From the IMG/VR virus record IMGVR_UViG_2802429221_000018: a stretch of 6,809 nt of DNA; one strand, written 5' to 3'. A program made the translations under genes and the position numbers. Below, piece after piece: positions 1-6,809 of the stretch. Each line of letters opens with the position of its first letter. Position 1 is the first letter of the stretch. The notes below the pieces were generated by a model, which was not told the DNA's origin, searched no databases, and saw only the letters and a list, made by a program, of their open reading frames with translations. The DNA comes from a virus. Its lineage: Duplodnaviria > Heunggongvirae > Uroviricota > Caudoviricetes.

Positions 1-1314
1 CTAACCCACTGATTTTAATAGGCCTCTTGTGTCACTTTGGTGACTATGGGACATCATTGGGACATAATCTGCCAGCTTCTGATTCAGCATTGCGATCTGT
101 TCTGCATTGCTGTCAGTCATCCATGCTCCGTATACATTGAACACCATCTGGGCACTTGCATGGCCCATCTGGCTGGCAATGAAGCTTGGATTTGCTCCGG
201 CAGATAATGACCAGCACGCATAAGTGTGTCGTGACTGGTATGCCTTTCGATGCCTGATGCCTGCACGTTTAATGGCTGTTTCCCATGAGTCGCCAATGGA
301 ATCTACCTTGTAGATAAAACCTACCTGTTTGCTTTTTCTAACCACCTGGGGGTTAAATACGAAAGTACATTCATGATTCACTGAACGTCCATATTCACGT
401 AGTTGAACCTTGATGTGGTGCTGCTTACCCAGTCTTGTCATTTCAGCCTGATTTTTCAGGACACTGATAGCGGGCTGGATAAGATGCACAACCCTGTTTG
501 TACTTGCTTCAGTTTTAGGTAGAGTGAACTCACCGAGTTTCGTATAATTGCGCCTGATAGTAATTGTTCCTGCTTTCAGATCGATATCTTCCCAGGCCAG
601 GGAGACCAGTTCACCATGACGCATTCCTGTGTACACAGCCAATGACCACAGGTTTTTTGTCTGCTGATGCCGGCAAGCATCTATCAGGCGAATAAATTCG
701 TCACGAGTTAGCGGATCTGGCTCTGCCCTGGCTCTTTTAAGAGGCTTAATTCCCTCGAAGGGATTTGCTTCTAAGTAACCGTGATCTGCAGCAAACTGAA
801 ACATTCCAGCGATTGTCGTCATATAATAATTTACAGTAACGACGCTCCGTCCTCTTGCTGGTGCTTTGTCTTTCGTTGAATTCTGATATCCGGTCAGCAA
901 ATCTTTCCTGATATACAGCAATTCCTCTTTGGTCACCGTTGACACCAGTCTGCTACCTCCAATTTTCGGAACCATCGTTCTTGCAACGGATTCATAGCGA
1001 TTGAATGCATTTGCAGAGATTTCCATGCGTTTCAGATCCAGCCACTTTTCTTCAAGCTCTTTCACCGTAATTTCTTTTTTATTTACCCCAAAAGCCCTGA
1101 GGTTAGGAGAGTCAGGGAACTGCGCAGCGTAATCAAAGTTTCCTGTACGAATGGCAAAACATACAGATGTCCGCAGCTCTCCGGCGATCTTCCTGTTCTT
1201 GGCAGTGTCAGGGACACCAAGGTTTTCCCTGACACGTTTACCTTTAAAATTAAACCAGATGCGTAATGTGCCACCGTGGTTTTCGACGCCTGTTGGATAT
1301 TTGACTTTATCCAT
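1..1314 (-). CDS. int: Phage integrase, lambda-family tyrosine recombinase with N-terminal arm-type DNA-binding domain
   Basis: 437-aa minus-strand ORF, ATG at 1314..1312 with GGAGG 5 nt upstream (minus sense), stop TAG at 3..1. N-terminus (YPTGVENHGGTLRIWFNFKGKRVRENLGV...FDYAAQFP) fits the arm-binding domain pattern of lambda-like integrases. C-terminal half has the tyrosine-recombinase catalytic pattern (RHRKAYQSRHTYA ... GHASAQMVFNVYGAW). Adjacent to an excisionase-like gene. Confidence 0.9.
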   Translation of the reverse strand: MDKVKYPTGVENHGGTLRIWFNFKGKRVRENLGVPDTAKNRKIAGELRTSVCFAIRTGNFDYAAQFPDSPNLRAFGVNKKEITVKELEEKWLDLKRMEISANAFNRYESVARTMVPKIGGSRLVSTVTKEELLYIRKDLLTGYQNSTKDKAPARGRSVVTVNYYMTTIAGMFQFAADHGYLEANPFEGIKPLKRARAEPDPLTRDEFIRLIDACRHQQTKNLWSLAVYTGMRHGELVSLAWEDIDLKAGTITIRRNYTKLGEFTLPKTEASTNRVVHLIQPAISVLKNQAEMTRLGKQHHIKVQLREYGRSVNHECTFVFNPQVVRKSKQVGFIYKVDSIGDSWETAIKRAGIRHRKAYQSRHTYACWSLSAGANPSFIASQMGHASAQMVFNVYGAWMTDSNAEQIAMLNQKLADYVPMMSHSHQSDTRGLLKSVG

Positions 1315-2450: not shown

Positions 2451-3278
2451 TTATTTAACCTGGATAAATGGTGTATTAGCACCGCTGGTCATGTATTGCG
2501 GCAGTGTGCCGTTCCATTTATTGATGGCTTCCAGCTCCATAACACCGGGGTTCTGGCGCAGAGCTTCACCGCGTAAACGAATAGCATCGGCTTCGGCCTG
2601 GGCTTTTGTGCGAATCGCATCAGCCTGTCCGGCAGCTTCCGCGCGCAACATGTTGGCTTCCGCTTCGCGCTGTTTAACTTCCTGCTCGCGCTGCAGTGTT
2701 TTCTGGTTCGCCGTGACTTTGGCATTAATGCTGTCGATAACAGTAGGCGGGTACTCCGGCTTACCCACATATGAGAGGCTCATTACCTGAATACCGATAG
2801 GTGTCATCTCTGCCTGAATGTCTTTAAGAGCTTCATCAAGCAGCTCAGACTTGCCGCCGTCGATAAATTTGTCAGTGGTCATTTTGCTGGCCAGTCGGTT
2901 GAGTGCGTCGGCGATCTTCTGGCGCAGGTCGGTGTCTGTAATGTCATCCACGCCTTTGCGGTAGGTCTGAAACACCGTGGTAACTTTGGATGGATCAACT
3001 TTGTAGGCCACGCCAATGTGATAGCCGATGGTTGTACCGTCACTCATCTGGAAACTGAACGGTTCATCGTAGGTCTTCATTTGCTTGAAGGTGGGGAAGA
3101 TGTAAACTTCAGTATTCCAGCCAGTCCAGTAGCGACCAACACCGACCACCTCACCGACGCCTTTGTCGTCGCCCAGTTTATTTACCTTGATGCCAACATT
3201 ACCTGGTTCAACGCGATCGCAACCGACAAGGCCAATAGTCGGCAGAATAATGGCTAAAGCAAAAATAATTTTTTTCAT
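2451..3278 (-). CDS. SPFH / band-7 (stomatin-prohibitin-flotillin-like) domain lipoprotein
   Basis: 275-aa ORF. N-terminus MKKIIFALAIILPTIGLVGC is a signal peptide ending in a lipobox (LVGC). The body has the SPFH-family pattern, followed by an Ala/Glu/Arg/Gln-rich coiled-coil stretch (REQEVKQREAEANMLRAEAAGQADAIRTKAQAEADAIRLRGEALRQNPGVMELEAINKWNGTLP) typical of C-terminal regions of bacterial SPFH proteins. SD TAAGGA upstream; ATGA start/stop overlap with the preceding 62-aa gene. Confidence 0.8.
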   Translation of the reverse strand: MKKIIFALAIILPTIGLVGCDRVEPGNVGIKVNKLGDDKGVGEVVGVGRYWTGWNTEVYIFPTFKQMKTYDEPFSFQMSDGTTIGYHIGVAYKVDPSKVTTVFQTYRKGVDDITDTDLRQKIADALNRLASKMTTDKFIDGGKSELLDEALKDIQAEMTPIGIQVMSLSYVGKPEYPPTVIDSINAKVTANQKTLQREQEVKQREAEANMLRAEAAGQADAIRTKAQAEADAIRLRGEALRQNPGVMELEAINKWNGTLPQYMTSGANTPFIQVK

Positions 3279-3463
3279 CTTTTATCCTTAGTGAAAGAAA
3301 GACCCTTGTAAATGGCATAAATGCAGGGCGGGGTCAGAAACGTCAGTGCAAAGCCAGAAATAACTGCTATCGTATCCTTCATGGATATAAGGAACGGAAC
3401 GAGTAATCCGTAAATGCATGCGATAATTGCCAGTAAAATTACTATTGTGAAATACAGTCTCAT
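3275..3463 (-). CDS. Small integral membrane protein, two predicted TM helices (possible NfeD-like partner of the SPFH protein)
   Basis: 62-aa ORF MRLYFTIVILLAIIACIYGLLVPFLISMKDTIAVISGFALTFLTPPCIYAIYKGLSFTKDKR with two hydrophobic segments. Its stop overlaps the SPFH start (ATGA at 3278..3275). SD is weak, so the start is uncertain. Confidence 0.55.
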   Translation of the reverse strand: MRLYFTIVILLAIIACIYGLLVPFLISMKDTIAVISGFALTFLTPPCIYAIYKGLSFTKDKR

Positions 3464-4968: not shown

Positions 4969-5096
4969 GGCTTCCTCAGCTGACTTATATGTTCTGCTAT
5001 ATAGCGAGTCTCAGAAGTGTTTTCATATTGAGACTGTTTCCGCAATGATTGATAAAAATGTTCGCATGTACCTTGAGGGGCGAAGCGGTGATTATG
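4969..5096 (-). promoter_or_regulatory. Intergenic control region upstream of the 121-aa gene, with palindrome and inverted repeat
   Basis: 128-bp non-coding gap between two minus-strand genes. Perfect 10-bp palindrome GCTATATAGC (4996-5005); inverted repeat AGTCTCA (5007-5013) / TGAGACT (5029-5035); weak hairpin plus T-run in minus sense (5054-5085) that could terminate the upstream HTH gene. Promoter hexamers not confidently placed. Confidence 0.35.
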
Positions 5097-5615
5097 TCAC
5101 CATTGGTATTGGTTCTTCCGTAGAAGAGCTTCGCGAGATAAGGAGCAAACTTGTTGAGATGCGTCATGGTGTTGCTGCTCCTCACTTTTTGGTTGCTCCG
5201 GAGGAGTAACCTCGCCAGTTAACAGCCACATCGGATCGCAGCCAAGAATATTTGCCAGTGGGATAAGCATACTGATAGTTGGTTCATACTCTCCGCTCTC
5301 CCACTGGATGATGATTTCTTCATCGAGATCGAGCAGCCTGGCGAGTTCGGCGGTTGTTAAGCCGCAGGCTTCGCGTTGGGTGCGAAGGCGGGAACTAATA
5401 GTCACCATAGCAAGGTGACGGCAAGATTTAGTGCGCTCTTGTCTTCTTTGTGAAAAATCTTCTTGTGCAAGAGAAGATGCCAGTTCAGCTGAAATTAGAA
5501 GTAATGAATATGAAACATCTCGCTCTTTCTCGGTACCTGAAGACAACAAGCAGGCTGCGTTAAGGGATGCAGAAAGCTTGTTGATGTCATCTATAGCGTC
5601 AATAAAATCGATCAT
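5097..5615 (-). CDS. HTH-XRE family DNA-binding protein with an additional ~69-aa N-terminal region
   Basis: 172-aa ORF, ATG at 5615..5613 with GGAG upstream, stop TGA 5099..5097. Residues ~70-136 (TISSRLRTQREACGLTTAELARLLDLDEEIIIQWESGEYEPTISMLIPLANILGCDPMWLLTGE) are a textbook Cro/CI-type helix-turn-helix. The N-terminal 69 aa and C-terminal ~36 aa are unassigned. Confidence 0.7.
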   Translation of the reverse strand: MIDFIDAIDDINKLSASLNAACLLSSGTEKERDVSYSLLLISAELASSLAQEDFSQRRQERTKSCRHLAMVTISSRLRTQREACGLTTAELARLLDLDEEIIIQWESGEYEPTISMLIPLANILGCDPMWLLTGEVTPPEQPKSEEQQHHDASQQVCSLSREALLRKNQYQW

Positions 5616-5655
5616 TTCTCAAAGCTCCAATAATGCGCTGTGAGGTAATGATTTA

Positions 5656-5681
5656 TCAACTATAATTGATAGTCAAGTATA
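5656..5681. promoter_or_regulatory. Operator-like sites between the repressor gene and the HTH gene (OL-like)
   Basis: TCAACTATAATTGA (5656-5669) matches the perfect palindrome at 6177-6190 in 12 of 14 positions. The adjacent TCAAGTATA (5673-5681) is an exact left half-site. A TTGACT hexamer is present on the minus strand. Confidence 0.45.
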
Positions 5682-5683
5682 AT

Positions 5684-6169
5684 TTAGTCTTTTTGATTGA
5701 GTTTTTGCGTGATTAGCAAGATGTTTTTTGAGTGTTCTTCCAGAAGATTTTTTGCAAAATCCAACACCTTTACCCTCTCTTTTGTGGGTAAATTCGCAAA
5801 TATTTCAAATAAATAGCTTGTATCCTCAATGATTGTTGGATCTATAGATTCAATAATACCTCGTATCAGTTTGTTGCTCATTGAATCAAAAAGAGTTTCT
5901 CCATTCTCCCGGGTAAGTGTGTACTTAGGTTTTTCTGTGTTTCCATTTAAAAGCCACTGTACGTCGCACTGTAATAGTTCTGATAATTTCAATAACTTAT
6001 CGCTAGTTATGCTTGTCTTTCCTTTCTCCCATAAAGATACAGCAGCCATTGATACCCCCATTGCTTGTGCCAGCTTTAATTGACTTAAACCAAGTTCTTT
6101 TCTGCGTGACAGAATCCTGTGCCCCATTGAGAGTGGAGAAGACTGACATGACTTTAGTTTTGTGTTCAT
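5684..6169 (-). CDS. Prophage repressor (CI / RacR-like), N-terminal HTH-XRE domain
   Basis: Track ORF 5684..6232 starts at a TTG with no SD. Start chosen at ATG 6169..6167 (MNTKLKS...) with GAGGG 5 nt upstream. Residues ~15-75 (MGHRILSRRKELGLSQLKLAQAMGVSMAAVSLWEKGKTSITSDKLLKLSELLQCDVQWLL) are a clear XRE-type HTH. Divergent from a Cro-like gene across an operator-bearing region. Confidence 0.75.
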   Translation of the reverse strand: MNTKLKSCQSSPLSMGHRILSRRKELGLSQLKLAQAMGVSMAAVSLWEKGKTSITSDKLLKLSELLQCDVQWLLNGNTEKPKYTLTRENGETLFDSMSNKLIRGIIESIDPTIIEDTSYLFEIFANLPTKERVKVLDFAKNLLEEHSKNILLITQKLNQKD

Positions 6170-6249
6170 ATTGCCCTCAAGTATACTTGATAGTAGGATT
6201 GTGTTGTAGGCCCTGTCGCTAAGCTTAATCAATTAATGTTGAGGTCTCA
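6170..6249. promoter_or_regulatory. Divergent promoter/operator region of the immunity switch
   Basis: 80-bp gap between divergent HTH genes. Perfect 14-bp palindrome TCAAGTATACTTGA (6177-6190) abuts the repressor SD; related site TCAATTAATGTTGA (6229-6242) overlaps the cro SD. Both share TCAA-N6-TTGA arms. Exact -35/-10 hexamers could not be assigned with confidence. Confidence 0.6.
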
Positions 6250-6489
6250 ATGATAAAGATTAGTGCAATTAAGTTTTATGGTTCGCAAAGAGCGATTGCT
6301 CAATCACTGGGGATTAGCGAGCAAGCTGTTTCTCAATGGCCAGAACTCATTCCTAAAGGCGCAGCTCTGGAGCTTGAGAAACTAACCGCTGGGGCTCTGA
6401 AGTGCGATCTGAACCTGTACAAGAACCGCTCGCGCAAAAACAAGCGTGGAGCACACTCAAGTTTAGCGCACACAGAGGACGGAGAGTGA
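6250..6489 (+). CDS. Cro-like HTH transcriptional regulator (YdaS/Cro family)
   Basis: 79-aa ORF, ATG 6250 with GAGG 5 nt upstream, stop TGA 6487-6489. Translation MIKISAIKFYGSQRAIAQSLGISEQAVSQWPELIPKGAALELEKLTAGAL... fits small Cro/YdaS-type HTH proteins encoded divergently from prophage repressors. Confidence 0.7.
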   Translation: MIKISAIKFYGSQRAIAQSLGISEQAVSQWPELIPKGAALELEKLTAGALKCDLNLYKNRSRKNKRGAHSSLAHTEDGE

Positions 6490-6809
6490 GGGGAGTGTAC
6501 GTTGATCGTAGAGAAATACCTCCTGATTGCGTGCAGATAGACATGCCCTCGGCTTATAGCTCAGCAGATGCTGAGTGGATTAAGCAGCAGTTACTTAGCC
6601 TGACACTCACGGCACGACAAAAAGCCATCCAGCGTTATGCCGTTGTGTATCAGGAGGCATTTGAGGCCGAACCCATTTCGTACCGCAAGGAGAACCGGGC
6701 AAGGCATGAAGCAAACACAAGGCTTCGCCTGTTTGTGAGAAATCAGGGCAGAGCTTTACAGGGGTATACCGCCGAACCTCCCCTAGCTGGAACGCAATCG
6801 CGATCCTGA
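6486..6809 (+). CDS. Hypothetical early-right operon protein, 3' end beyond window
   Basis: Open frame 6402..6809 running off the window end. Plausible start at GTG 6486, overlapping the cro stop (GTGA) with GAGGA/GGAG just upstream; the alternative ATG at 6543 has poor SD. No confident family assignment. Confidence 0.45.
   Translation: MRGVYVDRREIPPDCVQIDMPSAYSSADAEWIKQQLLSLTLTARQKAIQRYAVVYQEAFEAEPISYRKENRARHEANTRLRLFVRNQGRALQGYTAEPPLAGTQSRS

Follow-up and report, generated by a model that had tools for sequence, protein, structure and literature searches.

In P22 and lambda, the systems homologous to the one described here, the lytic and lysogenic promoters are arranged back to back, and in coliphages 186 and P2 they stand face to face. 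The operators of phage 434 have the form ACAA-N6-TTGT, with three sites per operator, and the 434 repressor carries an S24 domain. P22 operators follow the consensus ATTTAAGATATCTTAAAT, in which TTAAG half-sites are separated by 4 uncontacted bp, and a valine of the c2 recognition helix packs against the methyl groups of TTAA (PMC5175364). In the PaaR2/YdaS system of CP-933P, the operators are 18-bp palindromes with the consensus half GTTTAGTAA, four repeats of which occur in the right region, and paaR2 is leaderless, with a toxin-antitoxin pair following (PMC8630535).

The window (the whole 6,809-nucleotide stretch of viral DNA that was analysed) comes from a lambdoid prophage integrated beside yecE and covers its left arm and immunity region. 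Its repressor and cro genes are transcribed divergently and flank the right operator, as in lambdoid phages, and the repressor gene has 14-bp sites at either end, two in the interval between repressor and cro and two just past the repressor stop codon:

1-1314, minus strand: integrase, followed by excisionase and small early-left genes
2451-3278 and then 3275-3463, minus strand: SPFH-domain lipoprotein-like gene of the early-left operon and small membrane-protein ORF, a pair annotated likewise in related prophages
5097-5615, minus strand: opening gene of the leftward operon, encoding an XRE helix-turn-helix (HTH) protein of 172 aa (Pfam HTH_3; PHROG 4836/4739)
5656-5669: left-operator site 1, TCAACTATAATTGA, exact match to TCAA-N6-TTGA, 20.1 bits
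5673-5686: left-operator site 2, TCAAGTATAATTTA, one mismatch (TTTA for TTGA), 15.0 bits
5684-6169, minus strand: immunity repressor of 161 aa, XRE (Pfam HTH_3, E = 5e-15)
6177-6190: right-operator site on the repressor side, TCAAGTATACTTGA, perfect palindrome and strongest site, 21.6 bits
6229-6242: right-operator site on the cro side, TCAATTAATGTTGA, exact match and the weaker of the right pair, 16.3 bits
6250-6489, plus strand: Cro-like regulator of 79 aa (Pfam P22_Cro, E = 1.2e-16; structure 1rzs, P22 Cro, E = 1.6e-13)
6543-6809, plus strand: ORF after cro, beginning MPSAYSSADAEW (PHROG 852, a function-unknown family; probable start ATG at 6543)

Judging from the comparisons below, the four 14-bp sites are likely to be operators belonging to an immunity module of P22 type whose specificity is its own, and the TCAA-N6-TTGA palindromes are very probably the sites through which a P22-related repressor and Cro would control the lysis and lysogeny promoters.

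The same immunity region is present in Escherichia coli 52F4 (99.8% identical over window positions 5600-6260), beside yecE/yecN, and the repressor start ATG is the one given in the RefSeq annotation of that strain. The 52F4 prophage (L063; NZ_CM147848.1, 546000-569000) is a ∼23-kb remnant whose lysis, terminase, and tail genes are truncated, and in it cro is followed by a Rha-family gene and an ash-family gene, not by the PHROG 852 ORF. This ORF, which takes the place of cII, also follows cro in two of the related lineages described below (L031 and L035), in Fels-1, and in Klebsiella phages. The first early-left gene is a mosaic with a junction near 5392. Its HTH/C-terminal part (about 5050-5392) is 98-99% identical to genes of many E. 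coli prophages; a search with 5050-6809 matched 349 genomes over at least part of its length, with the top matches listed covering about 5050-5392, and those prophages examined that share this segment have other immunity regions. The N-terminal 75 residues travel with the immunity region, as in 52F4, and differ in E. coli CE10, LH50-c, and phiP27; this part of the protein may be immunity-specific.

The likeness to P22 begins with the regulators themselves. The N-terminal domain of the repressor is homologous to the DNA-binding domain of P22 c2 (E = 3e-11), with the DNA-binding domain of the 434 repressor also a detectable homologue (E = 5.5e-7), and in an AlphaFold model (database homologues; mean pLDDT 82) this domain superposes on c2-operator crystal structures at 0.8 Å rmsd over 65 columns. 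The Cro-like protein is likewise homologous to that of P22, the two genes diverge, and the palindromes stand on both sides of the repressor gene in both systems. The C-terminal domains differ, however: residues 95-160 of the model form three helices and no protease fold, where P22 has an S24 protease, and Pfam gave no Peptidase_S24 match in the repressor. Since this domain is lacking, induction would probably not proceed by RecA-stimulated self-cleavage. Relatives that do bear an S24 domain share only the N-terminal domain with the window repressor.

A reading made from the sequence alone (the sequence-only reading) had proposed a recurrent TCAA-N6-TTGA motif, represented by at least three sites plus a half-site. 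Its recurrence is confirmed: three exact matches occur in the window, at 5656, 6177, and 6229, as that reading had placed them, against 0.23 expected, and three or more were reached in 0 of 200 dinucleotide shuffles. The identity of TCAACTATAATTGA to the perfect site at 12 of 14 positions also holds (2 of 14 differ). The three sites stand, but the supposed half-site TCAAGTATA at 5673 does not, since it belongs to the full 14-mer TCAAGTATAATTTA with one mismatch; this second left site overlaps both the repressor stop codon and the -35 of a candidate leftward promoter. When the window was scanned with a weight matrix made from the sites of other lineages only, the window being left out, the top four matches were exactly these four sites, each of which contains the half-site TCAAG. 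A third right-hand site, sought with the same matrix, did not rise above background, because the next match in the window after 15.0 bits reached only 9.2 bits. Whether the motif might be equally common elsewhere, a question the sequence-only reading had raised against itself, was answered by a 50-kb stretch of E. coli 52F4 that contains the prophage remnant with its immunity region and 27 kb of chromosome, in which the window's three sites are the sole exact matches. A full-text search with the 14-mers returned only unrelated matches, such as primers and shRNA constructs.

Two sites stand out in each operator region, compared with three in P22. The left pair is spaced 17 bp from centre to centre, off helical phase, and with only two sites per region lambda-like cooperative pairs are therefore not evident. 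In a variant lineage (L004, 97.7% identical), the five intergenic substitutions on the right are all confined to the stretch that separates the two sites, with 6177-6190 unchanged, and on the left two substitutions hit sites, the position being variable in one case and conserved in the other; this pattern is weak evidence. Both left-hand sites also contain a perfect TATAAT on the plus strand (5662-5667 and 5678-5683), directed into the 3′ end of the repressor gene, which is probably a by-product of the TATA centre of the operator, and in one relative (L036) such an operator hexamer is the best PR -10 candidate.

Close relatives of the repressor are few. More distant ones were recovered by profile searches of IMG/VR and a large protein collection, with 232 family members in all, after a Cro-based locus search had yielded the second member of the family. 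Scans of species-representative genomes with the repressor and with a two-sequence alignment recovered no relatives, and a word-indexed protein search with the single repressor query returned near-identical copies only; a second viral scan added no new lineage, and a metagenome scan added one (L053), about as similar as the L033 type. The family resides in prophages of Escherichia, Salmonella, Klebsiella, Kluyvera, Xenorhabdus, Photorhabdus, Yokenella, and related genera. Across six lineages, the 1.77 kb flanking the repressor gene held 14 exact sites, whereas the other 24.9 kb held one, and dinucleotide shuffles of the flanks gave a mean of 0.09. When only non-coding DNA was considered in 13 lineages, twelve with the recognition helix xSxAA[VI]SLWE and one S24-type relative with VSKASVSLWE, 17 exact sites were found in 2.56 kb around the repressor gene, with at least one site in 10 of the 13. 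The consensus, (A/T)TCAA-G/T-TATA-C/A-TTGA(A/T), has a symmetric, A/T-rich centre in which positions 6-9 favour T-A-T-A, and the spacing is fixed at 6 bp.

The motif is kept with the recognition helix even where the remainder of the protein has diverged. The repressors are only 29-44% identical overall to the window protein, yet helix xSxAA[VI]SLWE and motif are both retained. Thus, L009, found through its Cro (68% identical), encodes a 137-aa repressor that is 42% identical overall but has the window's helix, VSMAAVSLWE, unchanged, and the perfect palindrome TCAAGATATCTTGA lies beside its repressor gene. L062, the S24-bearing relative with helix VSKASVSLWE, carries TCAAGAATACTTGA. Conversely, in Citrobacter L060 the repressor helix reads LSDVSVSQWE and the Cro helix also differs, and TCAA-N6-TTGA was not found there even at one mismatch; at the equivalent places flanking the repressor gene are TTAGC-N4-GCTAA palindromes (TTAGCTATAGCTAA and TTAGCCATGGCTAA). 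Two lineages with the same helix type as the window (L055 and L057) lacked an exact site and carried just versions with a single mismatch or another spacing. Separately, the L060 cro is followed by a YdaT-family gene, and in L040 (E. coli LH50-c) an S24-type XRE repressor with the unrelated helix VSAQSVQYW is flanked by TCAAGTTATAATTGA, with a 7-bp centre, and by several CTTGA repeats, so that the half-site is similar and the spacing different.

The earlier suggestion that OR-like and OL-like operator sets flank the repressor gene is supported by these comparisons, in which the motif tracks the HTH repressor/Cro pair across diverged prophages. The helices of both proteins track it, and the comparative data do not separate the two as binder; by analogy with P22, repressor and Cro would both bind the sites.

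In some relatives a site falls inside the cro reading frame. Among the first six lineages, 5 of the 14 flanking sites occupy cro codons 4-8 (KSSVVD), and such a site (AAA TCA AxT GTA GTT GAT) is present in L033, L035, L036, L037, L056, L058, and L061, unlike the window, in which the cro-side site precedes the ATG. Synonymous positions within the in-frame site do not change, although neighbouring codons do vary at theirs, a pattern suggestive of selection at the DNA level. These sites may in part be due to coding constraint and common descent, and in L061 the in-cro site persists though the repressor helix differs.

Set against P22, the core TCAAG-N4-CTTGA has the same geometry as TTAAG-N4-CTTAA, with 5-bp half-sites 4 A/T-rich bp apart in both, but each half-site differs by one base; the L033 site, TCAAGATATCTTGA, departs from the P22 core TTAAGATATCTTAA by just that base in each half. 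The recognition helix VSMAAVSLWE differs from P22 VSNVAISQWE by N32M, V33A, I35V, and Q37L (P22 numbering), substitutions that may be the cause of the T-to-C preference. Membership of the P22 immunity group, with the same specificity, was rejected on the half-site TCAAG and the helix VSMAAVSLWE, which are not those of ATTTAAGATATCTTAAAT and VSNVAISQWE. The sites likewise share with 434 a 14-bp operator composed of 4-bp outer half-sites around a 6-bp centre and an xCAAG half-site, but the outermost base is T/A here and A/T in 434, the recognition helix is different, and the window repressor, with two sites per region and no S24 domain, departs from the three-site operators and S24 repressor of 434. 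On this sequence evidence the system is best classed as a new immunity specificity within the P22/434 kind.

PaaR2 provides a further parallel, as a small, protease-less XRE repressor that is divergent from a Cro-like gene and has intergenic operators overlapping both promoters, as well as an additional PL with matching operators (the promoters here being predicted). None of its distinguishing features, namely 18-bp palindromes, four repeats, a leaderless gene, and a toxin-antitoxin pair, was seen in the window system. An identity of operators was rejected, as the GTTTAGTAA half is absent from the intergenic regions of the window as read by eye.

Three promoter candidates accompany the operators:

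6171-6199, plus strand: PR candidate, TTGCCC (6171-6176), 17-bp spacer, TAGGAT (6194-6199), predicted start ∼6206
6222-6250, minus strand: PRM candidate, TTGAGA (6250-6245), 17-bp spacer, TAAGCT (6227-6222), predicted start ∼6215
5648-5676, minus strand: PL candidate, TTGACT (5676-5671), 17-bp spacer, AATCAT (5653-5648), predicted start ∼5640-5642, predicted to drive the early-left operon

The PR and PRM assignments are based on our own matrix scoring and on positional conservation. Each matches 8 of 12 consensus positions, under the threshold of 9/12 in a standard promoter scan, which gave no candidate between the two start codons and reported CTGACA-18-CATATT instead of PR or PRM; the PL candidate reaches 9/12 in the standard scan and is also top by matrix scoring. 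The sequence-only reading had held that the operators do not lie between -35 and -10 elements. This is unsupported, as the best candidate in each direction has one 14-bp site wholly inside its 17-bp spacer: 6177-6190 in the PR candidate, the best rightward one in the region at 10.1 bits, and 6229-6242 in the PRM candidate, the best leftward one at 8.8 bits, whose -35 overlaps the A of the cro ATG. In the PL candidate, site 5656-5669 is in the spacer and 5673-5686 covers the -35. Because TTGA opens the -35 consensus, sites and predicted -35 elements are bound to overlap to some extent.

The layout is not confined to the window. The PRM offset, with a -35 starting on the cro ATG and a 17-bp spacer, was the top match in 8 of 15 lineages, and the -10 at this offset in the other lineages is usually TAAAAT, TAGAAT, or TATAAT; in six lineages the PR -10 ends at +48 to +51, counted from the cro ATG. 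Salmonella L054 reproduces the window layout site for site, including a site at the position of 6229-6242, with better hexamers (TTGTTG-17-TATAAT and TTGCCC-17-TATGAT). A PL-like arrangement, in which an operator sits between a TTGAnn -35 and a -10-like hexamer, was recognised by eye in L031, L033, L035, L036, and L037. PR and PRM are predicted from these sequences to face each other with starts ∼10 bp apart, a layout recurring in several lineages, and with promoters so placed each operator would also fall within the opposing transcript, at about +23 to +38, adjoining the Shine-Dalgarno sequence (SD) of that gene. The predicted geometry is closer to that of 186 and P2 than to the back-to-back promoters of lambda and P22, and as in 186 and P2 the repression of lytic transcription could relieve interference on the repressor promoter; the proteins, however, are unrelated, and the predicted transcript overlap here is only ∼10 nt.

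In the proposed switch, binding itself, the location of the promoters, the order in which sites are occupied, and the route of induction are all predicted. A repressor dimer would place one recognition helix (VSMAAVSLWE) on each TCAAG half-site, the half-sites being spaced by one turn of the helix, as they are when P22 c2 is bound to its operator, and the Cro-like protein would presumably bind likewise, with one helix per half-site. The strongest site, 6177-6190, would fill the spacer of the lytic promoter PR, and on the left 5656-5669 would fill the spacer of the leftward early promoter PL, with 5673-5686 covering its -35, so that with repressor bound at these sites RNA polymerase would be denied access to both early promoters. 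At PRM it is the weaker site, 6229-6242, that would fill the spacer, allowing Cro or excess repressor to shut that promoter. As PR and PRM would face each other with starts so close, the silencing of PR would also relieve interference on PRM. Taken to its simplest form, this would be a minimal two-operator switch of facing PR and PRM, each with a single spacer operator that also lies in the opposing 5′ leader at the SD, with PRM activated by relief of interference and not by contact between protein and polymerase; this form is put forward tentatively, as a possibility somewhat short of an even prospect.

An unlikely alternative is that the promoters are back to back, as in P22 and lambda. PRM would then be GCGACA (6219-6214)-18-TACTAT (6195-6190), which matches 8 of 12 positions and starts inside the perfect palindrome, leaving a repressor leader that is short yet still SD-bearing; with PR placed immediately before cro, the perfect site would serve in autoregulation, like OR3, and the PR operator would be 6229-6242. 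No acceptable rightward promoter was found in 6200-6240, however, and two promoters with two SD-bearing leaders do not fit into 80 bp without interleaving. The facing layout, moreover, is found at fixed offsets in other lineages, with near-consensus -10 hexamers in L054 (TATAAT and TATGAT).

Less probable again, and doubtful as a principal mode of control, is that the sites act mostly after initiation, either by blocking elongating polymerase or by occluding the SD on mRNA or DNA. The sequence-only reading leaned in this direction, from its description of the two right-hand sites as lying at the repressor SD and the cro SD. The placement is as described, with 2-nt overlaps of 6177-6190 with the repressor SD (GAGGG, minus strand, 6174-6178) and of 6229-6242 with the cro SD (GAGG, 6241-6244), and the position of the sites on the opposing transcripts under facing promoters fits as well; but such closeness to the SDs follows from an intergenic region of only 80 bp. 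The left sites are at least 35 bp from the next SD, the distance from site to SD varies among the other lineages, and a spacer site in all three best promoter candidates would already suffice for repression. Nor is it evident how an HTH protein that binds duplex DNA could mask an SD carried by RNA. Action at ribosome-binding regions in place of promoters is therefore not supported as the main mechanism. As for the two effects that had been hinted at, a roadblock may add to repression as a secondary effect under facing promoters, and translational interference is without specific support.

It is very improbable that the binder is the neighbouring XRE protein (5097-5615) in place of the 161-aa repressor. 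An HTH protein is indeed encoded adjoining the left-hand sites, but its HTH domain is also found, identical, in E. coli CE10 and, with one residue different, in phiP27. In both, the repressor is a different one, of S24 type, the intergenic repeats are others, and TCAA-N6-TTGA is absent from ∼5 kb. By these sequence comparisons the neighbour appears to be a regulated target of the switch, not the binder of the motif.

Finally, that the matches are a product of chance or a by-product of AT-rich intergenic DNA, of -35-like TTGA on both strands, or of IHF sites (WATCAANNNNTTR) is hardly credible, even though TTGA begins the -35 consensus and many sites are preceded by A/T-A/T to give WATCAA, since dinucleotide shuffles never reached the observed counts, the spacing and the T-A-T-A of the centre are fixed and symmetric, the motif is gone when the recognition helix changes, and an IHF site must have TTR 4 nt, not 6, after ATCAA, which is absent from all four window sites.

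If the four sites are operators of a P22-type module that has a specificity of its own, the reading favoured here, they would give a predicted operator sequence and regulatory layout to an uncharacterised family of short, protease-less repressors that databases have so far labelled only as "helix-turn-helix domain-containing protein". Knowledge of the operator would also allow prediction of which prophages have common immunity. Because one base pair per half-site and four helix positions, including the valine central to P22 recognition, differ between the two systems, the family offers a natural test case for shifts in HTH specificity. The analysis also points to a compact and possibly face-to-face promoter layout: if the two-operator facing switch is true, one dimer would occlude one promoter while throttling the transcript of the other, and the logic of 186 and P2 would have been made of P22-type parts with a protease-less repressor.
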